Shown: positions 1,189 to 57,200 of the stretch, one piece after another | Layout: each line of letters opens with the position of its first letter | Numbering within the stretch: the stretch's first letter is position 1 | Assembly: GCA_937128795.1 (NCBI GenBank) | Contig: CAKZMQ010000019.1 | Location: 45,571 to 109,570, forward strand | From: an uncultured Solirubrobacterales bacterium | GTDB lineage: Bacteria > Actinomycetota > Thermoleophilia > Solirubrobacterales > JACPNS01 | Direction: 5' to 3' | Length of the DNA: 64,000 nt | Translations under genes and position numbers: made by a program | Notes under the pieces: generated by a model | What the model saw: the letters and a program-made list of their open reading frames with translations, nothing else | What the model was told of the DNA's origin: nothing | Database searches by the model: none

Positions 1189-1255
1189 GCGCAGTCGTCG
1201 ATCACCCAACACCACCAACCGTCACATCGCACCAAGCGGCAGGAGATCAGAAACC

Positions 1256-13242: not shown

Positions 13243-13320
13243 CCGTGCGGAAGTGGATCGCTTCGGCCCGCGAACAGGCCGCTACTTCAGTTAGGTATCG
13301 GCACCCGAACCAAAACATTT

Positions 13321-13355
13321 ACCCAAAAACACGAAAACCCGGCGATCGCCGGGTT
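13321..13355 (-). terminator. Rho-independent terminator downstream of ahcY
   Basis: Perfect 20-nt palindrome AACCCGGCGATCGCCGGGTT (13336-13355). On the minus strand it is followed by TTTCGTGTTTTTGGGT. It lies 33 nt after the ahcY stop. Confidence 0.65.
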
Positions 13356-13387
13356 CTCGTTCAACTCCTATGTGCTGGATCGCTGGC

Positions 13388-14836
<1,449 letters not shown>

Positions 14837-40024: not shown

Positions 40025-40963
40025 CTAATGGTCATGGGAGACGGCGCTACCCATGTAGATGGCGGAAAGAATCGCGAAGATGAAGGCCTGCAGACTGGCG
40101 ATCAGGCCGACTTCGAAGAGGTAGAAGGCGATGCCGATGATCAGCGACGGGAAGACGAACACGCTGCCGAGCAGCACGATCATTCCGCCGGACATGATCA
40201 GGATCAGCATGTGGCCGGCGAGCATGTTGGCGAACAGTCGAACCGACAGCGACACGAGACGCAGGAAGTGCGAGAGCGCTTCGATCATCCAGACGACGAT
40301 CGCGATGCCCTTGCCCAGTCCCGACGGCGACCAGGTCTTGAGATAGCCGATCGGACCGTGTTCGCGAACGCCCTCGATGTGGTAGGCGATCCAGACGACG
40401 ATCGCGAGCGCCAGCGGCACGGAAATGTTCGAGGTGGCGGCGTAAAGCTGGAAGGTCGGCAGGCTCAGACCGAAGACGTCAACACTGTGCTCGGTGTTGA
40501 TCGGGAGCGGGATGTAACTGAGGATGTTCGAGAACCAGACGAAGAAGAACAGCGTCGCGATGAATCCGAACCATTTCTGTGCGATGCCGACGTTCTTGAT
40601 GTTCGCCGCGACGATCGTCTTCTCGACCAGTTCGTAGCCAGCCTCCACGACGAACTGGATACGTCCCGGCTTCTTAGTGGGGTTGGCGACCATCTTCTTC
40701 GAGATGTAGACAAGCGTGAGAACGGTCGCAAGCCCAGCGAACCAGAGCATGAACACGGCCTTGTTGATCGACATGTCGAACGGACCGATGTTGATCTCGA
40801 CCCACGGGTCGAGGCGAAACTCGTTCTGCGGTTTGAAGTCCTCGTTGATCTCGATCGCGTGCGCGGCGACGGGGTTCGAGAGCAAGAATGCGCCGATCGG
40901 CAGCGTGATCGCGAGGTAGCGAGCGCGGGCGCTCGAACGAAGACTGGAAATCCTCCCGATCAC
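40025..40963 (-). CDS. atpB: Fo ATP synthase a subunit
   Basis: Conserved Arg region LSVRLFANMLAGH. GTG 40963 overlaps the stop of the upstream membrane gene (GTGA) and follows GGGAGCAGGGAA. The ORF-track extension to 41251 is Arg/Pro-rich junk in another gene's space. Confidence 0.9.
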   Translation of the reverse strand: MIGRISSLRSSARARYLAITLPIGAFLLSNPVAAHAIEINEDFKPQNEFRLDPWVEINIGPFDMSINKAVFMLWFAGLATVLTLVYISKKMVANPTKKPGRIQFVVEAGYELVEKTIVAANIKNVGIAQKWFGFIATLFFFVWFSNILSYIPLPINTEHSVDVFGLSLPTFQLYAATSNISVPLALAIVVWIAYHIEGVREHGPIGYLKTWSPSGLGKGIAIVVWMIEALSHFLRLVSLSVRLFANMLAGHMLILIMSGGMIVLLGSVFVFPSLIIGIAFYLFEVGLIASLQAFIFAILSAIYMGSAVSHDH

Positions 40964-41400
40964 TTCCCTGCTCCCTTGACGGCCTCGGACTCTTCGAAGA
41001 GCCGGCCGATCACGCGTGCTGCGAAGTATGCGGTGAAGACGACCATCATCAGGATCACGCCGTAGACGCCGGCGTCGCGGTCGATCAGACCGAGGATTAG
41101 CAGGGCGGTTGCGACCGTCCATGCGCGCGCGAGCGCACCGCCGGCGAGGATGCCGATGACCTTTTTCGGGTCGGTCGCGCCTTCGACGCGGCTGTCGAGA
41201 AAGACTTGGAGGGCGAACTGCAGGATCCAGACGAGGGTTACGGCGCCCCACGCAAGTACTGGCCAGCCAGCGGCAAGAAAGATTGGAAGCGCGATCGCGA
41301 GAACGACGAAGTCAGGACGACGGAGTAAAAAGCGGAAGACGGTGCCGCCCGCAGAGCCCGAACCGGCAGAGCCGGTGGTCGTCAGGACGGCGGAAGACAT
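40960..41400 (-). CDS. Small 4-TM membrane protein in the AtpI position of the atp operon
   Basis: 146 aa with four hydrophobic segments. Translationally coupled to atpB. Family not recognised from sequence alone. Confidence 0.6.
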   Translation of the reverse strand: MSSAVLTTTGSAGSGSAGGTVFRFLLRRPDFVVLAIALPIFLAAGWPVLAWGAVTLVWILQFALQVFLDSRVEGATDPKKVIGILAGGALARAWTVATALLILGLIDRDAGVYGVILMMVVFTAYFAARVIGRLFEESEAVKGAGK

Positions 41401-41953
41401 GCACGCACTCCGCGGCGATCCAAGTAGTTGAGCAAGCTGGCCTTGCGGACATTCTCAAGCGAGGTGCCGGCAGGGCGCAGGCCTTTCATCCGCACCTCGC
41501 CACAACGCGTACGCGCTGACCGCTCGTCGCGGTCACGTTTGCTGAGGAATGCCCAACAGTCTGCATGGCTGCGCGCGGATGATCCATCGTTGTGGGGAAA
41601 GGTGTTCATGAGTGATGTACGGAACGCGTGCTGCGCCGGTCGAGTCCGTTTCAGTTCGTAGATCTCGCCGTGTGAAGCGACAGAACGTTGCGGGGGCTCA
41701 GTTGGCGACTCGGTAGGGCGGCTAGGCCACATGCCTCGTCGTGTTCCGTTGAGAAAGATACAACATCGCACAAAGTCTTCTGGTGCCTTTTGTGACTAGG
41801 TTTGATGCGGGTTTCCACCGGTTTGCGAACTTGAGCTGCGTCGCAAGCTCATGGAAAACTCGCAAATATCGATTGCTCGCCGTACCTAGGAAGTGGACGG
41901 GGCAGACTAGGCCTGACTTTCTAGACACCGATGCCCGCTGCCATAGAAGGTCG

Positions 41954-42547
41954 CTACCTGAGTGAGGCAGCGCCGGATTGCGGCCTAATCCCTTTGAATG
42001 CGGTTATCGAGGCATCGTCCTCCGGAAAGCTGGCTATCAGCGCGTCTGTGAGCACGTAAGTCGGGACCGGGGCGCTGACCGGGCGCTTAGTACCAACGAT
42101 TTTCCGCCAGTAAAGCGCCGGGGCGACATTGCCAATCACACCGACGAACCCAGCGTTCGGTTCCGACTCGTCGACGTGGTCACCACTAGACCAATCGCGC
42201 AGATCAAAAAATGGCAACACCGTCGCTCCAAACTTATTTGCAGCTTTTCGGTCGGGAAAAACGGCGAATTCAAAGTCCACTTCGGACCCGTACTTGTCAG
42301 CTGCCGTACCTGAAACAACTTTGGCACGACCGCCCCGAGCTAACCGCGTTCGATTCATCTCGAGCTCTAGACCGGCCTCCGAGGTGAACGATTTGAGTTC
42401 AGTCACAACTTGCTCGACCGAAACGACACTGTTGGATGAACCGGGGACTTCTAGCGGTTGAACTGTCCCGCAACCAGACGAGATGAGTGCGTAGGCAAGG
42501 AGCATCACAATCGCCGCTGTGGCGCCGATGCGTTCAATTCGATTCAT
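41954..42547 (-). CDS. Lipoprotein (hypothetical), third gene of the giant-protein module
   Basis: ATG 42547. MNRIERIGATAAIVMLLAYALISSGCG is a signal peptide with lipobox L-I-S-S-G-C. Lower-GC codons. 14-nt gap after the upstream stop. Confidence 0.65.
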   Translation of the reverse strand: MNRIERIGATAAIVMLLAYALISSGCGTVQPLEVPGSSNSVVSVEQVVTELKSFTSEAGLELEMNRTRLARGGRAKVVSGTAADKYGSEVDFEFAVFPDRKAANKFGATVLPFFDLRDWSSGDHVDESEPNAGFVGVIGNVAPALYWRKIVGTKRPVSAPVPTYVLTDALIASFPEDDASITAFKGIRPQSGAASLR

Positions 42548-42561
42548 GTCGCTACCGCCGC

Positions 42562-43134
42562 TCAATTCTGCGTCACCAATGAATCGATCCCTACTTGGCC
42601 GGCAACCGACGTGAGCAGGTCCGTTGCGAGCCTGATTCTATTTGCTGTGATCGTCTCGTACTGCTCGAGGTTTTCACCAAATGCTCTCTCGGCGTTTGGA
42701 TAGAACTCAAGATTTCGCACTGAGTCGCGGTACGCCAATTGAAGCGATGAGTACGGGACGAATGGCCTCCATTGATTGATGCTGCTATTGGCAGACGGCC
42801 GATCACGATCCCAGATCACTATGGCAAAATCCAGCGTGTTTTCAGGAGTCTCCTCCCCCCTCACGGCCGACCCCAAAATTACTCCCTCGAGAGGGAGCGA
42901 CGACGGTGGATCCATGAGGTAGGCGTGCACGCGAGCATTGGGCGTTTCTCGGAGCCCTTCGAACACTGTTTCGACCGTAAAGGGGGTCGACTCAGATCCA
43001 CGAGTGCTCACGTAGATGGCACCGAACGCGCAAACAAGAACTGTTGCGAACAATGCGGCAATATAGGCCTTCTTTTTGGAGGAGCGCATTGTGGCGGAAG
43101 CGTCATCGTCGATGCGTGAAAAAATCGATTTCAT
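42562..43134 (-). CDS. Signal-anchored exported protein (hypothetical), second gene of the giant-protein module
   Basis: ATG 43134 shares its A with the TAA stop of the giant gene (TAATG). KKKAYIAALFATVLVCAFGAIYV is a basic n-region plus TM. Lower GC. Confidence 0.6.
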   Translation of the reverse strand: MKSIFSRIDDDASATMRSSKKKAYIAALFATVLVCAFGAIYVSTRGSESTPFTVETVFEGLRETPNARVHAYLMDPPSSLPLEGVILGSAVRGEETPENTLDFAIVIWDRDRPSANSSINQWRPFVPYSSLQLAYRDSVRNLEFYPNAERAFGENLEQYETITANRIRLATDLLTSVAGQVGIDSLVTQN

Positions 43135-46100
43135 TAGGTACACCAATGCGCTGTGTACTCCCCCGCAATTGGAGCGCCCCTGAAGGTCCCTTCAGTATCG
43201 ACGTAGTCTCCGTTCGTACCTTTCCACCTGATTGTGGGCGTGATCTCATACTCGTAGTCAGTGGGGTACCTACAGGTCTGATTCGGATTGTTCAGCCAAA
43301 GCGTCCGGTTGAGCGTTGACGGAATAACCTCACTGGGCGCGGTGTTCTCGGGAACATTGAACGACCAGCTTGAAGACTCGGGGGGGAGCCCGAACAACGG
43401 GTCATCAAATTCATCTCCGCATGTGTTTGTGTCACAAATTGGGACCATTCTGCAGTTCGAAAGAACATCACCCACGGCGCCGAAACCGACGTATCGATCG
43501 CATACCTCGTACTCCAGCTTCATTTCGTATGCGGTGTCCTCGGGCATTGTGTACGAACCGAAATTAGTGGACGTGTCCACATGGAACGTATGCAGACCAC
43601 CTCCCGTTTCTCCCGAGCCCGCGACGGTGATCGCTGGATTCTCTTCAGCCGCAACGGCACCGTCAGTCTCCTCGCTCTCGGAATCCGACGAGTTGCCGCT
43701 TTGCTGAGCACTCTGTGTGATCGAAGATGAATTGAAACGCGTATTTACGACGCGATAGCGGTCAAACGTCCACGTGTTCGTTCCGTCGCCGTCCCAACCG
43801 GGTGTGTTCGGCGAATAGCCGTCATCCTCGCTTTTGTTCCATCGATCGAAGTATGATCTCCACGGGTAATCAGTTCGATCCTTGCTGTGCTGAGCGATTT
43901 TCGGAAGTCGCCTGCCGGAAATCGGATCGTCCGTTGTGGAGGTCACGAATGCGAGATGGTTGACGTTGGGGGGATTCTTGCCTGGGAGATAGTCTTGCCA
44001 ACGGCGTTTATCTGCCGCATCGATTGAAATGATGTCGCCAGGCCTTGTATTAATTTGTGTCAACTGCGATTTTCTAGGGCGATCCGCGTACTTTTCAATC
44101 AGTTCGCGTGACTCGAAGTATTCAATGAAGCGCGTCGCGCGCATCCAGGACGTCGTTCTCTCACGCACCTTGTTTGCACCCGGCCGTCCATCCTTGAGGA
44201 ACCAGAACGCGAAGTAGTTCCTGTTGTCCTCGTCGTCCGTGTCTGCCTTCGGCCATGTGTAGTAAAGCGTCCCGTCCCTTTTCCGTCGCGGGAGGCCCGT
44301 CCAGCGTTCGTGAGCGAATGAGACACCGCCGGCCCTCAGAATTTGGGACAGAAAGTTCGTGCAGTCGTTGTCACCTTCTTTTCCGTACAAGGAATTCGAG
44401 TAATCAAGCCCTTGCGCAGGAGCAATTTCAGGCGCGTCTCGATCGATCTGGTCCGCCTCTCGCACCTGATCGCCGGCTGAATAACCCCCGTACTCGAGCG
44501 CATAGTCCACGGCTTTGGCAACGTTAAACCGGCCGCAGTGTTTTCCACGAACGATTCTGTTACCTGGGCCTGCGCAATCCGCTAGGTCGCGTCCTCCGTA
44601 CTGTCCCGCCCAGGCGCTCGTAACTCGTCCTTCACGCACCCTAATCGTTTTAAAGTAATACTTCTTTCCATTGATAGGCGATCGCCACGCCGTCGGCATT
44701 GGATCCCTCGTGCCGGCCTCGGGAGCGTCACGGCCGTTGATCTTGTATGCATAAATCCTGTAGATTCCTGGATTCAACTCCATCAACACTTCGCCTCGTT
44801 TAATGCTGACCCCAGACGCTTTGTGGTGAAGCGTCCCCGATAACTCCCGGGACCTCAATGAGTTACACCGGTCACGTTGGCCCTCAATCTTCCTGCAGAC
44901 CTTCATCAGCGCACCAGGTACGCTTCGAACCGTTGCGGCATGGCCGAGCGCGTCGTCGAATGCCATATGAATGTACCCAGTGCTATGGGGGTCATACTCG
45001 ACCGTCTCAGAGAACGTGGCTACCGCCGACTCATTACCGACCTGATCAATAGACCGAAACTCGGCGTCGATGACATCACCGATGTCGACATTGTTGAACT
45101 GAATCATTGGATCATCCGTAACCGTCCATTCGCTCCAGCTCGAACCATTAAGCCGATAACGGATCAACGATGACTCGACGCCAGACCCTTGCGTCAAGTC
45201 ATCAATCGACGGGTCTTCGGGTTCGTCCCAGTCGAGCTCGGCAATCTTCGCGTCGCCGTTGTATGACACGTCGAATTCAGCGGGCGCTAGCGGCGCGGTT
45301 GTGTCAATTCGGATCGTCGCCAGAACTCGATTCGTCGCATTTCCGGCCCGATCCGACGCAGTACCGATTAGTCGCCACGCACCTTCGGCGAGGTTGTGAG
45401 TTTGTCCCGGAAATGACGCGAGAAACACATTTGAGCATCGCTGGTCATCGCAGTCGGAGTTAGTTTGGCTTTGGAGATCTTGAAGCGACGGGCCAGGGTC
45501 ATCGACTCGATCGGCTGTGATGGCAACCGACTTCACCCCCGAATCATCATCGGAGACCGTCAAATTGCTCGCAAGTAGGCTCAATGACTGCAAATACTCG
45601 CCGTCGAGCTTTGTCAATTCCGGCCCCGGGTCGGCGATATCTGGTGGTGATCCGGACACGATGCCGCCCGCGAAAGTTGACATAGACCGATTTCCCCGGC
45701 TATCGGACGCTCTAATTTCAACCGCGGCGGCGGTACCAGCACTGAGCAGGCCGTCTCCAATTTTTTTGGTTGGCTCCTCCGACGGCTGCCAATCCGACCA
45801 TCGGTCTTCGGAGGCAAAATCGCACTCCGTAGCAAAGTCGTCTACCGGAGCACTGCAAGCCCGGGTTTCGTATGAATCAAAGTCCTCAGCGTGGGTTGCA
45901 CTGTCGTCCCATTGAACTGTCAACTCACCTTCTCGATTCTCGAATGCATTCGCCCACAGTATTTGCGGCGGTGGTTCCGCATCTTGCGTCCAACTTGCCT
46001 GTGTCACCGCCGATTCGTTTCCAGCACGATCGACTGACTTAGCTTGAAACTCGTGTGCACCGCTGCTCAACCCTGAGTCCCGGAAATCTCCATCACATTC

Positions 46101-49100
46101 CGACCACGGACCGAAGTCGAGTTTGCACTTGGTGATGAACGAATCCGCAGGCGGCGTTAGTTCAATCTCGATCGAACTGCCCGCGACGTACTCAGGTATT
46201 TGCGAATCCAAGCTCGGCGCAGCCGGTGCAATCGTGTCGATGACAAATACCGAAGATGCCGGTGAAGAATCAACGTTACCCGCTATGTCTCTTGCACGAA
46301 CTTCAACACTGTGTTCACCATCGATCAAGCCCATAGCAGCGGTATCCATCGCGGATTCACAGTCTTCAAATTCGGTGTTGTCGACCGAGCATTCGAACTC
46401 GACTGGCTCGGAAGCCGAGAACGTGAACTGAGGCGAGACTGAGCTGGACACGTTCAGAGCCGGACCATCAACGATCCAAGTCTGCGGAGCCGTAGTGTCG
46501 GACACGAGTTCGCCAGCAGTGTCGACGATAAACCTTCGAGTTGCACTGCTTCCGACATTTCCAGCGGCGTCGATATACCGGATCGCGAACGTATGCGGAC
46601 CATCGTCGAGATCGACCATCGAGACGGGAGAGGCACAACTCGTGAACGGCGCGCTATCGATCGAGCAACTCGCGATGGCGTCGATCGGGGGGTCCTGAAA
46701 AGCGAACTCGATCGAGTCCTCAGTCAGCACTTGGTCATTGTCCGGAGTCACTGTCAATAACGGCGTCACCGGCGCAGTTCGATCGAGTTGGTACTCCAAA
46801 ACGTCGCTCGACGGACCAACCGCATCTCCAACGATGCTGCGAACACTGAAACCAACATTCCCGTCGTTCGCTGCGTGGGGCAAGTTGAATTTGTGGGGCG
46901 ATACGCACGGCTCCCACGGCCTCCCCTGCGCCTTGCACTCGAAACCGTCCGGCTGGTCGCCAAGCGATTCAAACCCAACTATTGGATTCGTTCCCCGATG
47001 TGGATTCGGGACCAATAGTTCTGACTGCACTGCTGGCGCGGGTGGCCCCGAAACCTCGGTATCAAACGAGATCTCAGCCGGATCGGAGTCAGTATTTCCC
47101 GCTCCATCAACTGCTCGAACTCTGAGGACATGAGGGCCATTTGCGAGCCTGGCGGTCTTGCCCCCCGCGGGACAGTGACTGAACGGCTCAGCGTCGACAG
47201 AGCATTCAAACCAAGAAGGTTCATTAGCCAAAGCTCGATATGGCAAACTTGGCTCGGTCAGGGTCGAGCCTTGGCTCGGCGTCACTTGCTCGTCGAACGA
47301 CGTTTCAGGTGGCACCGAATCAGATGAGGGCGGAGTGACTTCGACCTGAAGAACCAATGGCGTTGGATCCTCATTGCCGACCGCGTCGACAGCTTTCGTC
47401 TCAATCGAGTGAAGCCCAGCCGCGAGGTTGATCGATTGCCCGTCAGGACATGATCGAAATGGTCCGCCGTCCAGTCTGCATATAAAACTCACAGCCCATT
47501 CGGACGAACTCCAGCCAAAGCGTATGTTCTCTGAGTCGACTTGAATTACGGGTGCATGGATGTCCGAAAGGGCGTTGCTTACTGAATCAAGCATCGTTTC
47601 AGGCGCGGTCGCGTCCACAATAAAGTTTCTAGTTACAGGTGTCGGGTCCGTTCCGCCAGCGTTATTGCGCGCACGGACGGAGACCGAGTAGTTCCCGTCT
47701 GGAACTGAACTAAGACTGAGCTCGCGGTCGCAAATCTCGAATTCGCCACCATTGAAAGAGCATTCAAACCCGGCGTTTGCCTCCCCATCAAACTCGAACA
47801 GAACTGGAAGCGTCACGACTTCATTCTCGCCTGGCCCTGCAACGATCCGAGTAAACAGCGGCGGCGATGTCATGAGCACTACTGCAAGTTCGTCGCCGAT
47901 CAGGTCGTGATTGCCAGCTTCATCAACAGATCTTACGCGGATAGTGTTTGTGCCCTCTATCAGGCTCGCGAGCCGCTGACCAGGCGCGCATCGAATAAAG
48001 GGGGCCAAGTTGACGGAGCACTCAAAGCGGGCAGGAGACTCCGAAGACGAATACTCGATCCGAATGGATGCAAGCGACGAGTACACCAATTCCTGATCAG
48101 GAAGCGTGATCGCCGTGGTCGGTGGAACCGTATCGACAATGAAACTGACTGAAGCTGGCGTGGGGTCTGCGTTCGCATCCTCATCGACCGCGTAGGCCGC
48201 GAACGTATTGGCACCCTCTTCCAAGTTCGACAACTGCATCTCCGCCGAACATTCGCTGAACTCCGCCGCATTTATCGAGCAGTGGAATGTTGAAGTTTCG
48301 GAAGCTTCCAGAGTCAACGCGAGTTCATTTTCACGAATCCGCTCGCCTGGAGGCAGACCATGAATCGTCGTTTCCGGCGGTAGGACGTCAACGTTCGGTG
48401 ACGCCCCCGAAATGACATTGAATTCAACGCGGACCCATCTCGAAACGTTTCCTGCGGCGTCGATGGCCCGAACGGCAAGCGAATGGTTACCAGCCGTGAG
48501 ATCAGAAAAGGTTTCGTCCTGTGAGCAAGATGCGACGAATCCATCTAGTGAGCATTCAAACCAAGAACTCGACTCGTTTGAGCCCAATGTGAGTTGAAGC
48601 TCCCCAGACATCAGTTGACTGTTCGTGTCGAGGTTTGTTTGGATCGTTGGCGACGGGGCCTCGGTGTCCAAGATGTAGGAGATTTCAAGGGGCGACGGAT
48701 CTACCATCTCGCCATTCCGTGCCCTGGCAAAGAACGTGTACGTTCCATCAGTCGATTCGGCTCCAATCATCCATGTGAAAGGCGCAGCGCAGGGTGCCCA
48801 AGACTCTGCATCTTCACTGCATTCAAAACCAGCGCTCGAATCATTCGATGTCAGCTCGACATCCAATCGCCGCGAACTGCCTGCGGCGGGTATTGGCTGA
48901 ACGAGGGAAGTTGTCAGATCTTCCTCACCTTCCTCGAGTGAGAAACTGAGCGTCGTCGTCGGTCCAGGGACTCCTAGGTATGACATGGCGCGTGCACTGA
49001 TGGTGTGTTCGCCGGCGGCAAGCGATTCGACGGGATACGACATTTCGCAGTCAGCGAATGGTTCGTCGTCGATTCGACACTCCACTGCCGAGCGTTCCGG

Positions 49101-51353
49101 GACAGTGTGAAAGTCAAAAGTCATGGCCTGAGGAATTTCCTCTGACGAAGTTTGCTGGGAGATTTCGACCGTAGGAGCCACACCGATGACAAAAAACTCG
49201 AATTCAAATGACGTAGAAGAATTGAAGGCCGCGTCAATTGCCACGACCCGAAGCGCGTGAGCCCCGTCCTCAAGCATTGGGGGAGCGAGCGGCGACTCGC
49301 ATGGCAGGTACTCCCCATCGTCAATACTGCAAATAAACTCGGCAGGCTCATCCGCGCTGAACTGAATCGAAACGTCCTCGGGTTCGAAGTATCTCTGCGA
49401 GCGTTCGCTCTTTTCGAACGTGACCATCGGAGGTCCGGTCTCAATGAGAATCGTGAACAGCGCAGGTGTAGCGTCCTTTGCGCCGTTTTCCGAAACAGCC
49501 CTAGCACGGACCTCGTGCTCACCGTCAACGAGCGGTGGAGTGAAAGAGCTCGCACAAATCTCAAATGGAGCGGCGTCCACCGAACACTCGAAGGTTGCTG
49601 ACGGATCCGAAGACGTAATGATAAGTTGCGGCGTGCGGTCATCCGATGGGGATGACGGACCCGCGATTGAGGTATCGGGCCCCTCGTCAACAACAAACTC
49701 CGCAACCGCCGGCGTCGGGTCATGCCCAAACTGATTGAGCGAGCGAACAGAGATCGAATGCACTCCGTCGGCGAGTGCGCTCGGCACCGTCCAAGGCGAC
49801 TCGCAGGCCGCGAAGGTGCCGTCGTCGATCTTGCATTCAAATGAGTCGGCCTGACCGGTCGGGTCTGAGTCGAACTCGATCGTCGGCTGGTTGTCGTTGG
49901 TCTCTGCTGGCGGCGCAGAGGTGATCTGCGTGTCGACAGGTGAGCCTGAGTTGCAGCCCATCAGGCTCAGTGACTCGGTTCGCGTTGCCGTCGTCCAGTT
50001 CGCGTATGTGGCGACCAGCATGCGAACGTCGTTGGGAGAGACGCAGCCCATTTCGGACGGGGAAACGATCCGCAGGATGTGCGGCGAGAGCGGTGTGCCG
50101 CTGGTGTTGACGCGGCCCTCCTGCCCCAAGTCGAGCTCCAACTTCGTGGCCGGGATCGACGGCAGCTGGAAGGTCATCAACGTCTCGACTTCGCAGTACT
50201 CCCAGAAGCTGTCGCAGCTTGGGTCGATCTGCGGGAAACTGAGCCAACCTGCAGCCCTGATCGATCTGTTCGACTCGCCGATGTCGATCGCAAAGACCGG
50301 GATCGGTGACATATTCACGACCCAGAGCTTGCCGTCGATCGGCTCGCGGAACATTGGCGTCGTCAGGCGGACCGTTCCGACCTGGGCCTGCGCGGGACAG
50401 GAGTCTGGGTTGAAGCGGCTGAGCGTCGTAACCGAGCTGGTGGGACACATGTCGGCCGTCGCCCCGTAAGCGACGGTGTTCAGCCAGATCGCGGTGCCAA
50501 GCTTCAGCACGATCGCTCGAAGCGCGCTGCTCTCTGGAGCAACGGTCGCTGTGAACCGGGCTCCTGTCGGTGCGTTGGCCGTCGGGTTGGTGAGCGACGC
50601 AGAGAATGTGGGGTCGATCGTCTGCGGAGCACAATCGGTCACCGGATACTGAGCAATGGCGGTCGCCGAGGAGAGGTCATCGGCCACCAAGGTTGCCGAA
50701 GCGGTGTCGGCGACGGCCGGACAAGCGCTCGGGTTGGTGATCAACGGGAAGCTGCCGCCAAGCGCGCCGGTGAACGACATCGAGAGCTGCGTCAGCTGGA
50801 TCGAGACACCTGTCGATGAGGTCAACGGGAGCTCGGGAAAGGTGATCCGCTGGTGTTGGTCAGAGGTCGGCGCGCCGGACACGGTGAATGCGCCGTTGAG
50901 GTTCAGGTCAAGGCCTGCTTGTGCGATGAACGAACCGTCGCCGCCGGGAAGTTCGACGTTCAGCGAGACACCAGCCACAAGGTTGGACGACGGCGCCTCG
51001 GTGAGGAAGAGTTCACCGGCTGCCGGTGAGCCCGAGGCCAGCGTGACGGAGGCCGAGCCGATCAAGGTGCTCGGGTCGCAGTCGCCTGCTTCGGCATCTG
51101 CAATGGGGCACGGCGTTTCGATAGCGCCAGGAGCGATCCGCAGTCCTGCCGGGAGCTTCAGAGTCACATCACTGGGCTTGGGCGTGCCGACGAAGTCGGT
51201 GGTCAGCGTGAGGTCTGGGTGGGCGTTGACTGCTGTGGTTGAGGGCGTGAGAGTGAGGGTGGCGCCGAACTGCGCTGACGCAGAAGCTGCGAATCCGAAA
51301 CCTGCGACCGCCGCCAACGTAAGAATTAGCGCAAAGCGTGCCAACCGATACAT
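43134..51353 (-). CDS. Giant (2739-aa) secreted multidomain protein: signal peptide, ~470-aa N-domain, 15 two-Cys Ig-like modules, FN3-like modules, papain-like Amidase_6-type domain, orphan C-terminal domain
   Basis: Signal peptide MYRLARFALILTLAAVAGFGFAASASAQ. 15 repeats of F-x-C-x9-C...G-x-H-x-[FVIL]-x-V-R-A-x-D-x-A-G-N...D-T-x-P-P between aa ~473 and 1797 (nt 45963-49937). FN3-like AELDWDEPED..IRYRLNGSSWSEW. Amidase signature KAVDYALEYGG..GDNDCTNFLSQILRAGG..TSWMRATRF..GDIISID..VNHLAFVTS (nt ~43854-44528). Confidence 0.85.
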   Translation of the reverse strand: MYRLARFALILTLAAVAGFGFAASASAQFGATLTLTPSTTAVNAHPDLTLTTDFVGTPKPSDVTLKLPAGLRIAPGAIETPCPIADAEAGDCDPSTLIGSASVTLASGSPAAGELFLTEAPSSNLVAGVSLNVELPGGDGSFIAQAGLDLNLNGAFTVSGAPTSDQHQRITFPELPLTSSTGVSIQLTQLSMSFTGALGGSFPLITNPSACPAVADTASATLVADDLSSATAIAQYPVTDCAPQTIDPTFSASLTNPTANAPTGARFTATVAPESSALRAIVLKLGTAIWLNTVAYGATADMCPTSSVTTLSRFNPDSCPAQAQVGTVRLTTPMFREPIDGKLWVVNMSPIPVFAIDIGESNRSIRAAGWLSFPQIDPSCDSFWEYCEVETLMTFQLPSIPATKLELDLGQEGRVNTSGTPLSPHILRIVSPSEMGCVSPNDVRMLVATYANWTTATRTESLSLMGCNSGSPVDTQITSAPPAETNDNQPTIEFDSDPTGQADSFECKIDDGTFAACESPWTVPSALADGVHSISVRSLNQFGHDPTPAVAEFVVDEGPDTSIAGPSSPSDDRTPQLIITSSDPSATFECSVDAAPFEICASSFTPPLVDGEHEVRARAVSENGAKDATPALFTILIETGPPMVTFEKSERSQRYFEPEDVSIQFSADEPAEFICSIDDGEYLPCESPLAPPMLEDGAHALRVVAIDAAFNSSTSFEFEFFVIGVAPTVEISQQTSSEEIPQAMTFDFHTVPERSAVECRIDDEPFADCEMSYPVESLAAGEHTISARAMSYLGVPGPTTTLSFSLEEGEEDLTTSLVQPIPAAGSSRRLDVELTSNDSSAGFECSEDAESWAPCAAPFTWMIGAESTDGTYTFFARARNGEMVDPSPLEISYILDTEAPSPTIQTNLDTNSQLMSGELQLTLGSNESSSWFECSLDGFVASCSQDETFSDLTAGNHSLAVRAIDAAGNVSRWVRVEFNVISGASPNVDVLPPETTIHGLPPGERIRENELALTLEASETSTFHCSINAAEFSECSAEMQLSNLEEGANTFAAYAVDEDANADPTPASVSFIVDTVPPTTAITLPDQELVYSSLASIRIEYSSSESPARFECSVNLAPFIRCAPGQRLASLIEGTNTIRVRSVDEAGNHDLIGDELAVVLMTSPPLFTRIVAGPGENEVVTLPVLFEFDGEANAGFECSFNGGEFEICDRELSLSSVPDGNYSVSVRARNNAGGTDPTPVTRNFIVDATAPETMLDSVSNALSDIHAPVIQVDSENIRFGWSSSEWAVSFICRLDGGPFRSCPDGQSINLAAGLHSIETKAVDAVGNEDPTPLVLQVEVTPPSSDSVPPETSFDEQVTPSQGSTLTEPSLPYRALANEPSWFECSVDAEPFSHCPAGGKTARLANGPHVLRVRAVDGAGNTDSDPAEISFDTEVSGPPAPAVQSELLVPNPHRGTNPIVGFESLGDQPDGFECKAQGRPWEPCVSPHKFNLPHAANDGNVGFSVRSIVGDAVGPSSDVLEYQLDRTAPVTPLLTVTPDNDQVLTEDSIEFAFQDPPIDAIASCSIDSAPFTSCASPVSMVDLDDGPHTFAIRYIDAAGNVGSSATRRFIVDTAGELVSDTTAPQTWIVDGPALNVSSSVSPQFTFSASEPVEFECSVDNTEFEDCESAMDTAAMGLIDGEHSVEVRARDIAGNVDSSPASSVFVIDTIAPAAPSLDSQIPEYVAGSSIEIELTPPADSFITKCKLDFGPWSECDGDFRDSGLSSGAHEFQAKSVDRAGNESAVTQASWTQDAEPPPQILWANAFENREGELTVQWDDSATHAEDFDSYETRACSAPVDDFATECDFASEDRWSDWQPSEEPTKKIGDGLLSAGTAAAVEIRASDSRGNRSMSTFAGGIVSGSPPDIADPGPELTKLDGEYLQSLSLLASNLTVSDDDSGVKSVAITADRVDDPGPSLQDLQSQTNSDCDDQRCSNVFLASFPGQTHNLAEGAWRLIGTASDRAGNATNRVLATIRIDTTAPLAPAEFDVSYNGDAKIAELDWDEPEDPSIDDLTQGSGVESSLIRYRLNGSSWSEWTVTDDPMIQFNNVDIGDVIDAEFRSIDQVGNESAVATFSETVEYDPHSTGYIHMAFDDALGHAATVRSVPGALMKVCRKIEGQRDRCNSLRSRELSGTLHHKASGVSIKRGEVLMELNPGIYRIYAYKINGRDAPEAGTRDPMPTAWRSPINGKKYYFKTIRVREGRVTSAWAGQYGGRDLADCAGPGNRIVRGKHCGRFNVAKAVDYALEYGGYSAGDQVREADQIDRDAPEIAPAQGLDYSNSLYGKEGDNDCTNFLSQILRAGGVSFAHERWTGLPRRKRDGTLYYTWPKADTDDEDNRNYFAFWFLKDGRPGANKVRERTTSWMRATRFIEYFESRELIEKYADRPRKSQLTQINTRPGDIISIDAADKRRWQDYLPGKNPPNVNHLAFVTSTTDDPISGRRLPKIAQHSKDRTDYPWRSYFDRWNKSEDDGYSPNTPGWDGDGTNTWTFDRYRVVNTRFNSSSITQSAQQSGNSSDSESEETDGAVAAEENPAITVAGSGETGGGLHTFHVDTSTNFGSYTMPEDTAYEMKLEYEVCDRYVGFGAVGDVLSNCRMVPICDTNTCGDEFDDPLFGLPPESSSWSFNVPENTAPSEVIPSTLNRTLWLNNPNQTCRYPTDYEYEITPTIRWKGTNGDYVDTEGTFRGAPIAGEYTAHWCT

Positions 51354-51498
51354 AAATTTTCTTCCCCATTATTCATACTGAATTTGACAACCATTAAGGC
51401 AGCCTTAACACGATCTGATTTATAGTACCCGAATCGGATGGCGCTGTTTGGTGTATTTCTGACGTCGTGGTTGACCCCGCTGCTGTAGCCTCCCCACC

Positions 51499-51927
51499 AT
51501 GTCAACCAGCGTCACCTACGAGATGCGCCAGGCCCCGCCCTTCTGGGTGCGTGTGCTGGCAACCGCGGTCATCTGCTTCCTCGGTCTTTGGATCGCCAGC
51601 CTGCTTGATCTCGTCTACTACGGCGAGAACATTCTCAACCTCGTAATCGCGTCGCTGGTGCTGGCGGCTATCAACTTGACGATTCGCCCGGTGATGATGC
51701 TGCTGTCGATTCCATTCATCATCGTCACGCTTGGCCTGTTCATCTGGTTGGTGAACGCGTTGATGTTGTGGCTGACGGCACTGTTGGTGCCGCCGTTCGA
51801 CCTCGACGGATTCTGGAAGACGATCGGTGCGGCATTCATTCTTTGGATCTTCAACATGCTGCTCGGCGGCGTGATGCGTGACTTCACCGAGAAGCCGCAG
51901 CGCGAGACCTTCGAGATCGTCGACTGA
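51499..51927 (+). CDS. DUF360 / phage-holin-family-4-like 4-TM membrane protein
   Basis: NLTIRPVMMLLSIPFIIVTLGLFIWLVNALMLWLTALLVPPFDLDGFWKTIGAAFILW matches the N..IRP..L.lP...VTLGLF...NA..L....P.F...GFW signature of YvlD-type proteins. Confidence 0.8.
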   Translation: MSTSVTYEMRQAPPFWVRVLATAVICFLGLWIASLLDLVYYGENILNLVIASLVLAAINLTIRPVMMLLSIPFIIVTLGLFIWLVNALMLWLTALLVPPFDLDGFWKTIGAAFILWIFNMLLGGVMRDFTEKPQRETFEIVD

Positions 51928-51997: not shown

Positions 51998-52879
51998 ATG
52001 ATCAAGTCGGAGTCCCCCATTCTTGCGCGAGCAGTCGCCGCGACTGTGCTTTGCGCCGTGCTCGCCCTTGCGCTGTTTGCCGCTGACCGCGGCAGGGCGG
52101 CCAATCGTGTGGCAGCTGGCGAAGTTGACGCCGCGAGCCTCGTGCCGCGCAATCCTGCCGTGTCCCAGGCCGCAGACTGGAATCTGATTTTCCACGACGA
52201 ATTCAACGGTTCATTCCTGAACACGAGAAAATGGTCACGTCTGCGGGGAGATCGACACAAGTACGGCTCGCCTTTCAATCGTTCACTCGAATCTGCCGCG
52301 TACTCGATTCGAAACGTGACGCAGAACCGCGGAAGCGCTGTGCTCACGCTCAAACGTCGTCCGGCAAAGGGCTACCGGCGTTTTCCGTACAGCTCGGGGA
52401 TGATCCAGAGCGGTCCCAAGTTTGCATTTCGCTACGGCTACGTTGAAGCTCGTGTGAAGGTGCCGCGCTGTTCCGGGTGCTGGCCGGCGTTCTGGCTACT
52501 CGAAGATCCGCCGGACAGCTCGTGGCCGCCGGAAATCGACGTGTTCGAGTTCTTCGACACCGCCAAGGAGAAGCGTCCGCATTTCAATTTCCATTGGAAG
52601 CAGGGCAGCAGGCGCCGTCAGACCGGCATCAAGCCCTACGGTGAACCACGTCGCTCCTACGTCGGCTCTTGGCACACTTACGCGATGCTCTGGACGCCAG
52701 AGACGATCCAAGTATTCATCGACAACCAGCCCGGCCCCACCTACAACAACGCCGCGCGAATCCCGCACAAAGCGAGCTACTTGATCTTCAACCTAGCTCT
52801 GCAGCGAGGCAACAGGCCGCGAAGCGGACGAAAGATGCTGATCGACTTCGTGCGCGTCTGGCAGCCGGCCACCGGCTGA
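51998..52879 (+). CDS. Glycoside hydrolase family 16 (beta-glucanase-like), signal-anchored
   Basis: ATG 51998. N-terminal ILARAVAATVLCAVLALALFAA. DEFNG, SGMIQSG, GYVEARVKVP, WPAFWLL, catalytic E-I-D-V-F-E at 52532-52549. Confidence 0.8.
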   Translation: MIKSESPILARAVAATVLCAVLALALFAADRGRAANRVAAGEVDAASLVPRNPAVSQAADWNLIFHDEFNGSFLNTRKWSRLRGDRHKYGSPFNRSLESAAYSIRNVTQNRGSAVLTLKRRPAKGYRRFPYSSGMIQSGPKFAFRYGYVEARVKVPRCSGCWPAFWLLEDPPDSSWPPEIDVFEFFDTAKEKRPHFNFHWKQGSRRRQTGIKPYGEPRRSYVGSWHTYAMLWTPETIQVFIDNQPGPTYNNAARIPHKASYLIFNLALQRGNRPRSGRKMLIDFVRVWQPATG

Positions 52880-52885
52880 ACCCGT

Positions 52886-54052
52886 TCATTCGCGTTCGAT
52901 CGCCGGAAACTCCCCCGTTGCCAGCTGCTCGGCGACGTCGGCATCCACCTGATCCTCGGTGATGGCCCCCTTGCGGCGCAGCCGTCGTCCGCTGAAGCGA
53001 CGCAGCTTGAGGATCTCAAGCACGACGACGAGATAGAAACTCGCCGCGAGCACCACCAGTCCGAGGCCCACCAGTACCAGCGTCCAACCGGTGTCGAGGT
53101 TGCCATGGCCGTCTGAATACGGGATGAACCGCAGCGCGAGGGCGAGGGCCGCCAGACAGAGCGTCCACGCGTAGAGATAGAGCACGGTTCTTCGCTGCGA
53201 GAAACCGATGTTCACGAAGCGGTGATGAAAATGCCAACGGTCTGCGGCATAGATCGGTTTGCCGTACTTCAGTCGCTTGGCCACCACGAAACCGGTGTCG
53301 AGGATCGGCACCGCGAGAATCACCAGCGGGAAAAACAGCGCGACGGCGGCGGCCGTCTTCAGCACGCCCTGAATCGCGATACAGGCGAGCAGATAGCCGA
53401 GCAGGTTCGATCCAGCGTCGCCCATGAAGATCGTCGCCGGATGGAAGTTGTGAAAGAGAAACCCGAGCGACGCCCCGGCTGTGCATGCGGCGAGGATGCC
53501 CGCCGAGTAGCGGTTGAGCGACAGCGCGATCGCGGCAAACGTTGCAGCACCGATGAAACATACGCCGGCCGCCAGGCCGTCGGCACCGTCGGTGAGATTC
53601 ACAACGTTGATGACCGCGACAATGCCGAGCATCGTCAGCGGTTCTGCCAGCTCACCGAGGTCGACTGGAGCGATGAACGGCAGTGTGAAGTTCTGAACGA
53701 CAACGCCGCTCATCACCGGCACGGCCGATCCGAGGAACTGCCCGACCAGTTTGGCGAACGGCGAAAGATTGAAGATGTCGTCCATCGCACCAACGAAAAC
53801 GATGATCAGGGCGCCGAGAATGATCCCTTCGGTCTCGCCCGTATCCGGCATGAAAAAGAGACTCGACACCAGCAGCCCGGCAAGAATTGCGAGCCCGCCG
53901 AGGCTCGGCATGTCTTGGTCGTGCAACGAGCGGTCTTCGACTTCCGCAACCGCCCCCACGCGGACGGCGAATCGAGCCGCCAGCGGCGTCAGGGCAAACG
54001 AGACGGCTGTGGCTACGGCGAAGCCAGCAAGTGCTTGAAGTTCAGATGACAA
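52886..54052 (-). CDS. wecA: Polyprenyl-phosphate GlcNAc-1-phosphate transferase (WecA/Rfe, MraY-family GT4)
   Basis: GAMDDIFNLSP, NVVNLTDGADGLA, IFMGDAGSNLLGY motifs. The stop is firm. The start is uncertain: the maximal ORF reaches 54214, but that ATG lies 6 nt from the divergent gene's ATG. TTG 54052, just before the first TM, is my preferred guess. Confidence 0.8.
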   Translation of the reverse strand: MSSELQALAGFAVATAVSFALTPLAARFAVRVGAVAEVEDRSLHDQDMPSLGGLAILAGLLVSSLFFMPDTGETEGIILGALIIVFVGAMDDIFNLSPFAKLVGQFLGSAVPVMSGVVVQNFTLPFIAPVDLGELAEPLTMLGIVAVINVVNLTDGADGLAAGVCFIGAATFAAIALSLNRYSAGILAACTAGASLGFLFHNFHPATIFMGDAGSNLLGYLLACIAIQGVLKTAAAVALFFPLVILAVPILDTGFVVAKRLKYGKPIYAADRWHFHHRFVNIGFSQRRTVLYLYAWTLCLAALALALRFIPYSDGHGNLDTGWTLVLVGLGLVVLAASFYLVVVLEILKLRRFSGRRLRRKGAITEDQVDADVAEQLATGEFPAIERE

Positions 54053-54219
54053 GGGCGCTCGCGGCAAATCATGGCGCAAAGCTCGGAGAGCGTCTGCGGA
54101 TAGCCCAGAAAAAGCGCAACCCTGCCAACATTTACCTGTTTTTGAGTGGCAACTCGGCGTCGGTTCCCTTACCTTTATTGTGCCTTGCCTTGAAGGTGGC
54201 TTGTTTACCGGCATTCAGG

Positions 54220-57200
54220 ATGAATTCCGCGATTTCCCCTACGACAAAACTCGGGCTCATGAGGAGCGTCTTCTTGACCGCGATCTTCGCGGCGCTGTTG
54301 CTTGCCGCGACGGCACCGGCCGCGATGGCCGATCCGCCGGCGGTTTCGGTCACTTCGCCGACCGCATTTGCGTCGATCAACAGCGCTGATGTGACGGTCG
54401 CGTTCGACGCTTCCGGCGACGCGCCATTGACCATCGAATGCGCACTCGACGGCGGTACACCGGTTGCCTGTGCGGACGAGATCGCCTACACCGGGTTGAG
54501 CGAGGGCACGCACACTGTGGAAGTTTCGGCCACCGACGAGCTGCTGAACTCGGCGATGGCGTCCGTGACGTTCACCGTGGATTTGACTCCGCCGACGATC
54601 GCACTGAGTTCTCCGGTCGCCGGCGCGACGAACGACGACACGCCGACGGTCGCCGGAACAACCGACGTGCCTGACGGCAGTTCTGTGGAAGTCACCGAGG
54701 GCGCGAACCCGGTCTGCACCGCGACGGTCGCCTCCGGCGCCTTCACGTGCGACGCCGCTGCGCTCGGCGAGGGCACGTTCACGCTGTTGGCAACTGTCAG
54801 TGACGCCGCTACCAACTCCGCGTCGGACACCGTGACGATCGACGTCGACCTGACCGCTCCGGTGGTCGACTTCGACACGCCTGCAGGCGGCTCTTGGAGC
54901 CAGAGCGACTCAGTCGCCACGACCTTCAGCGTGATCGAAGTCAACGTCGCCAGCGTCGAATGCCGGGCCGACTCCGATGCTGCGGTGCCGTGTGGTTCGG
55001 AGACCGACTTCACGTTCGCTGGGCTCGCCGATGGCGCTCGGGTGTTGAAGGTGCTTGTGATCGACGCGGCCGGCAACTCCGACGAGGCATCGATCACGGT
55101 GAACGTCGACACGATCGATCCTGCGTTGACGGTGACCGCGCCGACGGGCGGCGAGTGGATCACGTCGGGCACAGTCGATCTTGAGTTTTCTGCGACCGAC
55201 GCGAACGCGCTCGAGTTCAGCTGTCAGCTCGACGCCGAGAGCCCGGTCGCCTGCACCAGCGCCACATCGCACAGCTTCACCGACGTTGCCGACGGCAACG
55301 ACCGCACGGTGACCGTCACTGCAACTGACGCCTCTGGCCGCAGCGACACCGAGACGATCGCCTTCCAGGTGGACAAGACCGCGCCGGTGGTCAGCTTCAC
55401 TTCTCCGGCAGACAACTCGTGGAGCCAGAGCAACTCTGTCGACACAACTTTCACGGTCACCGAGGCGAACGTCGCCAGCGTCACATGCCAGGTTGATTCG
55501 GACGCCGCAGTGCCGTGTGGGTCGGAGACCGGCTTCACGTTCGCTGGACTCGACGAAGGTGCTCGGGTCTTGAAGGTCTTGGTGACCGACCAGGCCGGCA
55601 ACTTCGATGAGGCGTCGCTCACCGTGAACGTCGACACGATCGACCCGGCTCTGACGATCACCTCTCCGCTTGCCGGTGCCTGGCTTGATTCGGGCAGCGT
55701 CGACGTGAGTTTCTCCGCAACCGACGCGAACTCGCTCAGTTTGACTTGCGAGATCACCGGCCAGAGCGCGGTGCCGTGCGACTCCGGTGCTGACCACACT
55801 TTCAGCGGCGTGGCTGACGGCTCGCGGACGATCAGCGTCACGGCGACCGATCCTTCGGGTCGCAGCGTGACTGAGAGCGTCGTCGTGAACGTCGACCAGA
55901 CCGATCCAGTCGTTGCGTTCACCTCGCCGAGCGACAACTCCTGGAGCCAGAGCGATTCCGTTGCCACGACTTTCACCGTAACCGAAGCCAACGTCGCCAG
56001 CGTGACCTGCCAAGTCGATTCAGACGCGGCAGTGCCGTGTGGGTCGGAGACCGGCTTCACGTTCGCCGGGCTCGCCGACGGCGCACGTGAATTGACGGTG
56101 CTCGTATCCGACCAGGCGGGCAACAGCGCAGAGGCAACGCGCATCGTGAACGTCGACACGATCGACCCATTGCTTTCGATCAGCTCGCCGCTCGCAGGTG
56201 CCTGGATCGACTCGAACAGCGTGAGTGTGAGCTTTTCAGCCACCGACGCCAACTCGCTGACTTTGACCTGCGAGATCAGCGGGCAGACTGCAGTTGCATG
56301 TGATTCCGGCTCTTCGCACACCATCACCGGCGTGACCGACGGTTCGCGAACGATCACCGTGACGGCAACTGATGTCTCGGGTCGCAGCGTGACTGAGAGC
56401 GTCGTCGTGAACGTCGACCAGACCGATCCGGTTGTGGCGTTCGCCTCGCCCGCCGACAACTCGTGGAGCCAGAGTTCGTCGGTCGCGACAACATTCGGCG
56501 TGACCGAGGCCAATGTCGCCAGCGTCGAATGCCAGGTCGATTCGGCGTCGCCGGTTTCCTGCGACTCGCAAACAGGATTCACTTTCGCAGGTCTTGCCGA
56601 GGGTGATCGGGTCCTGAAGGTCTTGGTCACCGACCTGGCTGGCAACTCAGCCGAGGCAACACGGACGGTGAGAATCGACACGATCGATCCTGCGTTGTCG
56701 ATCAGCTCCCCGCTTGCCGGCGCCTGGCTTGACTCGGGCAGCGTGCCAGTGAGTTTCTCTGCCAGCGACACGAACCCGCTGACATTGGCCTGCGAGATCA
56801 CCGACCAGAGCGCGGTGCCATGCGAGGCCGGATCGTCACACACTTTCCTCGGCGTGACTGACGGTGCGCGAACGATCACCGTGACTGCGACCGATCCTTC
56901 GGGTCGCAGCGTCACCGAGAACGTCGTAGTTAACGTCGACCAGACTGATCCGATCGTCGCCTTCGATTCGCCGGCCCACAACTCCTGGAGCCAGAGCGAT
57001 TCGGTCGCCGCGACTTTCACGGTGGATGAGGCCAACGTCGCAAGTGTCGAATGCCAGGTCGATTCTGATGGCGCTGTGCCATGTGGCTCTGAGACCGAAT
57101 TCACGTTCAGCGGCCTCGCGGACGGCGCTCGGGTGTTGAAGGTGCTTGTGATCGACGCGGCCGGCAACTCCGACGAGGCATCGATCACGGTGAACGTCGA

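Follow-up and report, generated by a model that had tools for sequence, protein, structure and literature searches.

A giant secreted protein from a Solirubrobacterales bacterium carries an Amidase_6 domain behind an immunoglobulin-like stalk and is encoded with a membrane-tethered partner on an accessory island

Tae3 (PDB 4HZ9) and TseH of Vibrio cholerae are papain-like Cys-His peptidoglycan amidases directed against bacteria, and each is neutralised by a small exported immunity protein from an adjacent gene, Tai3 and TsiH, respectively. TseH, a wall-degrading type VI secretion system (T6SS) effector with an immunity protein, is related by HHpred to the family Amidase_6 (PF12671) (PMC4453574). 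Amidase_6 has itself been assigned to the peptidoglycan enzymes of the NlpC/P60-CHAP-amidase group and likened to the T6SS effector Tae3, and the papain-like superfamily is described as spanning proteases, transglutaminases and acyltransferases (PMC10318531). Heads of the NlpC/P60 clade occur on polymorphic toxins (PMC3482391), and the Bacillus subtilis Amidase_6 proteins YhbB and YjcM are given as uncharacterised (PMC10653849). Here we describe an Amidase_6 domain in a giant secreted protein of 2739 residues, encoded in a 64,000-nucleotide stretch from the metagenome-assembled genome of an uncultured soil bacterium of the Solirubrobacterales (Thermoleophilia, Actinomycetota) (assembly GCA_937128795.1, contig CAKZMQ010000019.1, positions 45,571 to 109,570; hereafter the window). 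The domain call itself is routine; what is new is the partner gene and the island on which both genes lie.

A reading made from the DNA letters and open reading frames (ORFs), here called the sequence-only reading, had proposed a papain-like amidase of the PF12671 type near the C-terminus of the giant, and a hidden Markov model (HMM) search bears this out. PF12671 matches residues 2277-2501 of the whole protein with 56.2 bits (E=5.8e-15) and the excised domain with 63.6 bits (E=3.2e-17), both above the gathering score of 23.2. The alignment spans profile positions 3-151 of 163, and the match is far beyond chance. The peptide behind the proposal lies on the minus strand, in the ORF at 43134-51353, the plus-strand translation of 43854-44528 being stop-ridden. 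Read on that strand, every quoted motif falls in the order and place described: FNVAKAV from residue 2276 (window 44528), DCTNF at 2330-2334, TSWMRATRF from 2401, GDIISID from 2439, NHLAFV from 2465 and IAQHSKD from 2486. The putative catalytic cysteine had been put at residue 2331 (codon 44361-44363), which is exact, and this is the sole cysteine within residues 2273-2618; the putative histidine in NHLAFV is His2466. The IAQHSKD motif, likewise confirmed, holds a further histidine, His2489, on which the sequence-only reading was silent, as it was on the strand, the partner gene and the island. By its sequence, the domain is almost certainly an Amidase_6 domain.

We compared the domain residue by residue with its family. 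A profile search returned at least 2537 family matches, and the best 120 were aligned with the window domain, giving 122 sequences in all. D2330, C2331, N2333, Q2337, D2440, H2466, H2489 and P2497 are invariant in 122 of 122, in a comparison where the 120 outgroup sequences are the top scorers of a profile containing these very motifs and Bacillota YhbB-like proteins dominate. The proposed Cys/His pair is thus conserved throughout the homologues aligned. About 15 more signature positions are at least 90% conserved across the 122, among them A2281, Y2284, A2285, G2290, Y2318, S2336, G2343, G2439, T2471, D2492, R2493, G2519 and W2520, and all are kept in the giant's domain, which retains ~23 of ~23 family-signature residues. 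Judged by these residues, the giant has a genuine, intact Amidase_6 active-site signature and is a predicted papain-like Cys-His hydrolase.

Canonical PF12671 members (B. subtilis YhbB and YjcM and Bacillota proteins named 'amidase domain-containing protein') have the same motif order, A-x-x-Y-A … D-C-T-N-F-x-S-Q-x-L-x-x-G-G … W … G-D … H-x-x-x-V-T … H-[TSN]-x-D-R-x-x-x-P, with the Cys and both His invariant. They differ from the giant's domain in setting and in sequence. Canonical members carry one N-terminal accessory domain and are 308-419 residues long, a range that holds for all of the best 120 of at least 2537 family matches, whereas here the domain occupies residues 2277-2501 of 2739. 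Its close domain relatives, described below, have ~1000 residues, so that the placement, called unusual in the sequence-only reading, is indeed unusual as far as can be tested. Identity with canonical members is only 25-33%, and insertions relative to them (2294-2312, 2349-2384, 2449-2462 and 2501-2517) account for ~75 residues of the 225-residue stretch. Single-sequence searches with the giant's C-terminal part miss canonical Amidase_6 members altogether.

AlphaFold models from two runs, with full-length and trimmed alignments, have a mean predicted local distance difference test (pLDDT) score of 62-63, with 75-93 in the conserved core; the ~40% of the model with pLDDT <50 corresponds to the insertions. 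In one predicted model, whose core has a pLDDT of 75-88, Cys2331 (model residue 59) starts helix 58-69, His2466 (model residue 194) is the first residue of β-strand 194-203, and His2489 (model residue 217) comes directly after strand 210-215. A cysteine at a helix N-terminus and a histidine at a strand start make a papain-like arrangement in the predicted secondary structure.

By sequence comparison, the giant's Amidase_6 domain belongs to a rare, divergent sub-family. An exhaustive phmmer search with the last 499 residues against 1.84 billion representative proteins returned the giant itself and three others only. Two of these, P0002 (1025 residues; NCBI metagenome assemblies GCA_040960765.1 and GCA_040961225.1) and P0004 (1000 residues; Logan SRR22388340), match the amidase region, and the third, P0003 (200 residues), matches the C-terminal domain only. 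Residues 343-1024 of P0002 align with 1765-2541 of the giant at 28% identity (BLASTP, E=6e-63), an alignment that makes a ~780-residue cassette of β-modules and amidase a conserved unit. P0002 and P0004 have in common with the giant this cassette, the sub-family insertions, a terminal WTFD[RM]YR strand and an overlapping downstream partner gene; in the giant, sub-family conservation extends past the domain to WTFDRYRVV, residues 2528-2541 (to window 43731), in the alignments. They differ from it in having another ~340-residue N-terminal domain and in lacking the 15-repeat stalk, the C-terminal Cys-rich domain and the second lipoprotein gene. Because both end directly after the amidase, the amidase is the terminal functional head in two of the three members. 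In the window, the cassette is joined to a long stalk and to an N-terminus of another kind, and what appears to be a mobile C-terminal module lengthens it.

A protein identical to the giant is on record in ENA contig ERZ650162 NODE_61. The sub-family occurs in none of the 185,579 GTDB species representatives scanned, and a metagenome scan for it found only ordinary ~370-residue Amidase_6 proteins. A word-indexed search of 5.8 billion proteins gave no matches with the C-terminal 499 residues and only 2 with the three-member alignment; because it missed the giant itself, P0002 and P0004, though all are in the 1.84-billion representative library and the exact-match collection, its 'no match' is not evidence of absence. 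P0002 adjoins an IS3-type transposase and its GC is below that of its flank; nearby mfd-eno-divIC synteny only suggests an origin in Actinomycetota. Against models of the NlpC/P60 clan, which the sequence-only reading had also named for checking, the window domain has no NlpC/P60 or CHAP cross-match at E≤10, and P0002, its closest relative, touches the CHAP HMM of that clan at E=6e-4 (20.7 bits, below the 26-bit cut-off).

At each of the three cassette loci (3/3), the cassette gene is overlapped downstream by a gene whose product is small, exported and tethered to the membrane. In the window this gene is d1. At the P0002 locus (L002, ~13070-13640, +; also L003 and L004), the start of a sense-strand gene for a 187-residue lipoprotein (…AVLAGCGDD…) overlaps the end of P0002, where the public annotation calls a 223-residue antisense ORF instead. 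P0004 is followed by an overlapping gene for a 160-residue lipoprotein. The L009 partner matches the L002 partner at E=1e-8, with 30% identity over 97 residues, and after removal of the signal peptides the similarity remains (z=9.6, 0/2000 shuffles). Similarly, d1 matches the L002 partner at E=1.4e-5 in BLASTP, and the mature parts of the two remain similar (z=8.4, 0/2000 shuffles). Given overlapping, homologous partners, all three sub-family cassette genes are translationally coupled to one membrane-tethered protein family. As P0002 and P0004 lack the C-terminal Cys-rich domain, the partner goes with the amidase cassette and not with that domain. In Pfam, PHROGs and PDB the partner family is without a relative; a match of its profile to PDB entry 4n01 was dismissed since it covers the signal-peptide region only.

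The island holds a second small gene, d2, whose product has no detectable relatives and whose mature part is without similarity to the d1 family. We rejected d2 as a d1 paralogue: the mature parts give z~0, and the signal peptide accounts for an hhalign E=0.044. The d2 product could be a second protective protein, perhaps for the extra C-terminal domain; its role as partner of that domain has no support from the P0003 locus, where nothing d2-like stands beside the gene.

The giant gene, d1 and d2 make up a strain-specific insertion of 9.68 kb. In the nearest available relative (L012, metagenome-assembled genome ME_XS_2208_bin_78), the flanks are colinear at 87-92% nucleotide identity and 56 nt replace the insert (blastn), and five further relatives keep the order glyA–wecA-like–PF04020–orf129–atpB without the giant. 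The giant gene is dispensable, therefore, being missing in the nearest relative and in five more syntenic ones. The insert has a GC content of 56.6% and a GC content at third codon positions (GC3) of 0.59-0.63, against a GC3 of 0.72-0.85 in flanking core genes; it is compositionally foreign and accessory. Its borders show no terminal direct or inverted repeats and no att-like sites. PHROGs has no match for the head, the C-terminal domain, the N-terminal domain, d1, d2 or the neighbouring PF04020 protein, and a phage origin of the island accordingly finds no support.

The insertion site, flanked by the PF04020 gene and by orf129/atpB, is variable in the lineage. It is empty in L012, L014, L015 and L017; in L018 (5783-9023) it holds a 610-residue Ig-repeat secreted protein and a Tle1-like phospholipase (PF09994, E=3e-81), and in L013 (6734-8565) a two-component system of LuxR-type regulator and histidine kinase. 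The PF04020 gene itself (window 51499-51927, +) encodes a 142-residue membrane protein ('Phage_holin_4_2', E=9e-22) and is transcribed divergently from the giant gene. Not itself part of the insertion, it is conserved beside a WecA-like GT4 gene in L012-L018 and is 99% identical in L012; as it has no PHROGs match, its product is probably a housekeeping DUF360-type protein and not a lysis partner of the amidase. On the other side, orf129 (window 41382-41771, -; 129 residues) is conserved in relatives without a Pfam match and by position may be AtpI-like. It is followed by the ATP synthase a-subunit ORF (window 40025-41251, -; 408 residues), in which ATP-synt_A matches residues 167-400 only. The ~165-residue N-terminal extension of this ORF may be partly an ORF-calling artefact; residues 1-408 align with L012.

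The sequence-only reading had set the amidase behind more than 2000 residues of immunoglobulin-like (Ig) and fibronectin type III (FN3) modules. The Ig part stands, as 15 tandem repeats. The FN3 label is unconfirmed, since no fn3 model matches the giant at E≤1, and the rest of the upstream region consists of the signal peptide, a 440-residue domain without Pfam match and ~480 residues of other modules. Each stalk repeat has a C-x9-C pair (one C-x8-C). The stalk matches Pfam Big_13 at E=1.3e-36 and NCBIfam NF047446 (OmpL47-type barrel) at E=4e-48, and a self-built HMM finds the 15 copies at E 1e-21 to 1e-30. Their pairwise identity has a mean of 25% and a maximum of 39%; the repeats are old and divergent. 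The N-terminal domain has no Pfam or PHROGs match and no BLASTP similarity to the N-termini of P0002 and P0004, and the upstream half of the cassette has weak Big_13 matches only in Pfam. The C-terminal Cys-rich domain matches P0003 (phmmer E=6e-6; BLASTP E=4e-13), has no Pfam or PHROGs match and is not present in P0002 and P0004; it appears to be a mobile module without a family match. The P0003 gene (L010, 161-763) lies on tiny contigs of the same metagenome assemblies that hold P0002. Of wall anchors, neither LPXTG nor SLH, LysM or SH3 was detected in the giant. Coordinates of all features are collected in Table 1.

Table 1. Features of the island and of the giant protein, in window coordinates; residue numbers are those of the giant
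Feature	Position	Strand	Basis
Strain-specific insertion, 9,679 nt: giant gene, d1 and d2	41805..51483		blastn against L012
Giant ORF, predicted Sec-type secreted modular protein, 2739 residues, ATG start, TAA stop	43134..51353	-	ORF translation
Predicted cleavable signal peptide, residues 1-27 (MYRLARFALILTLAAVAGFGFAASASA, cleaved before Q)	51273..51353	-	n/h/c-region pattern judged by eye
N-terminal domain, residues 28-467 (440 residues)	49953..51272	-	matches no known family
Stalk, residues 468-1789: 15 tandem Ig-like repeats of ~86 residues, Big_13/OmpL47-barrel type	45987..49952	-	HMMs
Upstream half of conserved cassette, residues ~1790-2272: β-sandwich modules common with P0002 and P0004	44538..45986	-	BLASTP
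Amidase_6 (PF12671) papain-like cysteine-hydrolase domain, residues 2277-2501	43851..44525	-	HMM and alignments
Cys2331 codon, predicted nucleophile in DCTNF	44361..44363	-	invariant 122/122
His2466 codon (NHLAFV), predicted general base	43956..43958	-	invariant 122/122
His2489 codon (AQHSKDR), candidate third catalytic or substrate-binding residue	43887..43889	-	invariant; conserved D2492 and R2493 follow
C-terminal Cys-rich domain, residues 2573-2716	43206..43637	-	homologous to stand-alone 200-residue P0003
d1, 190 residues, N-terminal membrane anchor; ATG overlaps the giant's TAA (TAATG)	42562..43134	-	partner family of all three cassette proteins
d2, predicted lipoprotein of 197 residues (…LISSGC), starts 14 nt after d1, on same insertion	41954..42547	-	sequence

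The window encodes other large secreted proteins. A second giant (window 53887-60576, +; 2229 residues) has Big_13, Glucodextran_B and Big_7 Ig-like repeats and a terminal GH16 domain; its gene is native in GC3 (0.77) and has a homologue in L012. A stand-alone GH16 gene lies at window 51998-52879 (+). Two ~500-residue proteins are encoded in tandem (window 10163-11683, -, and 11734-13242, -), and each combines an N-terminal trypsin domain (E=3e-48 and 4e-56, respectively) with a C-terminal half of ~220 residues that is uncharacterised. A 1100-residue ORF (window 899-4201, +) has weak Big_3_2 and Big_13 matches, and a 1045-residue ORF (window 4335-7472, +) has no Pfam match. This genome thus seems given to setting hydrolases on Ig stalks.

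How does the locus compare with the described systems? In their proposed way of working, the giant and d1 would resemble the Tae/Tai and TseH/TsiH effector-immunity pairs without being members of them, and by sequence the giant does not belong to Tae1-4. A homologous small gene stands directly downstream in all three loci, as in effector-immunity pairs, and its role would be protective. Tae3 and TseH are small and are injected by a Gram-negative T6SS; the giant has a Sec signal and belongs to a monoderm actinobacterium, without a T6SS. Moreover, the Amidase_6 profile matches neither Tae3 (4HZ9) nor any other PDB sequence at E≤10, one chance match aside.

Polymorphic toxins with NlpC/P60-clade heads provide a second parallel. 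The features in common are great size, export, a long stalk of repeats, a head near the C-terminus, a mobile accessory locus and a gene directly downstream that protects the producer, as d1 would here. Mobility of the locus is indicated here by an insert that is missing in the nearest relative and has lower GC3, and by the IS3-family transposase next to P0002. The giant and d1 also resemble WapA/WapI of Bacillus subtilis, a Sec-exported, wall-associated, stalked toxin pair. Polymorphic toxins and WapA are built on RHS/YD or haemagglutinin repeats, whereas the giant has Ig-like repeats and a sub-terminal head, and no pre-toxin or releasing domain was detected in it. Classical polymorphic toxins keep a conserved N-terminus and vary the toxin at the extreme C-terminus; in the giant's sub-family the head is conserved and the carriers vary. 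Because the N-termini vary and the conserved head is followed by a 200-residue domain, we do not file the giant as a classical polymorphic toxin.

We propose the following mechanism. The giant would be exported via Sec, and its rigid Ig stalk would keep the head tens of nanometres off the producer. In the head, His2466 would activate Cys2331, with His2489, Asp2492 and Arg2493 assisting, to cut an amide bond, in a stem peptide or a cross-link, of the peptidoglycan exposed in a neighbouring cell's wall, in the service of antagonism, lysis or scavenging. Translationally coupled d1, on the outer face of the producer membrane, would neutralise the enzyme as an immunity protein or inhibitor. Peptidoglycan is, on balance, the probable substrate of the head. 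From the accessory nature of the gene and its membrane-tethered partner we infer that the head is aimed at other cells and that d1 confers immunity. The mechanism as a whole, in which a peptidoglycan hydrolase secreted via Sec and mounted on a stalk serves against other cells and d1 is its inhibitor or immunity protein, is the account that we favour tentatively, at somewhat less than even confidence. It is possible, though we would call it doubtful, that the locus represents a new actinobacterial antagonism module, in which a Sec-exported, peptidoglycan-cleaving Amidase_6 'warhead' cassette on exchangeable carriers (in this case 15 Ig-like domains that form a ~60-nm stalk) and a dedicated membrane-tethered immunity protein move together as a small island without T6SS, type VII secretion system (T7SS) or RHS elements.

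Several observations weigh against an effector with its immunity protein. The amidase stops short of the extreme C-terminus, with a ~200-residue Cys-rich region behind it, and the variation pattern just described, with a conserved head and differing N-termini, is the reverse of that of classical polymorphic toxins. The linkage of cassette and partner rests on three loci, a small sample. Compared directly, d1 and the L009 partner are only marginally similar (74/2000 shuffles, p~0.04), and their homology is transitive, through the homology of both to the L002 partner. A membrane-tethered d1 could just as well serve as anchor or regulator. The literature searched gave no demonstrated activity or solved structure for any PF12671 member. 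Searched against PDB sequences, neither the protein nor the Amidase_6 profile (E≤10) yielded anything relevant, matches to 7on8 and 3qb8 being dismissed as chance or short-motif matches. In Foldseek, searched twice against PDB and once against BFVD, neither AlphaFold model had a match at E≤0.001. The papain-like assignment of the sequence-only reading is hence carried by the significant HMM match and finds no significant structural counterpart; family membership rests on that match and on residue conservation. Papain-fold enzymes (dionain, cathepsins, calpains, Mac-1/IdeS and bleomycin hydrolase) are numerous among the weak Foldseek PDB matches (E 0.5-7), which is only a hint.

The alternative that survives best is that the giant is a self-directed autolysin or wall-remodelling enzyme, acting on the producer's own surface in growth, separation or surface-layer assembly, with d1 as its anchor or activity regulator. 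Enzymes of the NlpC/P60, CHAP and amidase types are mostly housekeeping wall hydrolases, and the canonical Amidase_6 proteins retrieved are small and annotated merely as 'amidase domain-containing'. A membrane-tethered d1 family would suit an anchor too, and envelope genes (WecA-like GT4, GH16 and the PF04020 membrane protein) adjoin the locus. A housekeeping role is nevertheless hard to square with a gene that is missing from the nearest relative and five further syntenic relatives, hence dispensable, and that has a foreign codon composition. No wall-binding module was detected in the protein, and with 15 Ig domains in the stalk the head would come to lie well past the producer's wall. We consider this alternative unlikely, if still a serious contender.

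A different substrate is the next alternative. Peptidoglycan would then not be the target of the head, which could be a cysteine hydrolase or transferase of another sort, such as a protease, an enzyme for polyglutamate or exopolymer amides, or a transglutaminase-like cross-linking enzyme, and the giant an adhesin or a nutrient-scavenging enzyme comparable to the Ig-stalked GH16 protein nearby. The activity of Amidase_6 is merely 'putative' in its Pfam name, the breadth of the papain-like superfamily leaves room for proteases, transglutaminases and acyltransferases, and the large insertions unique to the sub-family, beside the active-site helix, could alter specificity. The GH16 Ig giant, the two trypsin-like proteases and the other large secreted proteins of the window likewise suggest stalk-displayed degradative enzymes. 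Unlike the amidase giant, however, the GH16 giant has a native composition and is kept in relatives. The closest classified neighbours of the domain are peptidoglycan enzymes, and a coupled membrane-tethered partner would be unexpected for a simple scavenging enzyme. On this evidence a non-peptidoglycan substrate with such a role is improbable.

Least of all do we expect the papain-like domain to be a releasing peptidase that frees the Cys-rich domain (2573-2716) as the effector proper, with the downstream lipoproteins protecting against it: papain-like domains upstream of C-terminal toxin modules do this in several polymorphic toxin families (PMC3482391), the C-terminal domain is mobile with P0003 as a stand-alone homologue, and an unrelated second lipoprotein gene, d2, is lacking in the shorter relatives, but P0002 and P0004 end right after the amidase and still keep a d1-type partner, nothing d1- or d2-like stands beside P0003, and the C-terminal domain matches no known toxin family, which together make this reading very improbable.

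Amidase_6 is a large family, with at least 2537 matches, whose name is still 'putative'. With an intact active-site signature, a dispensable island and a coupled candidate inhibitor, the locus offers a handle on its function. Were the effector-immunity reading wrong, the giant would be one more enzyme-on-stalk surface protein, of a kind common in this genome. If that reading is true, wall-targeting antagonism would extend to Sec-secreted, Ig-stalked proteins of soil Thermoleophilia, the partners of the cassette would form a new immunity-protein family, and Amidase_6 would gain its first functional context.

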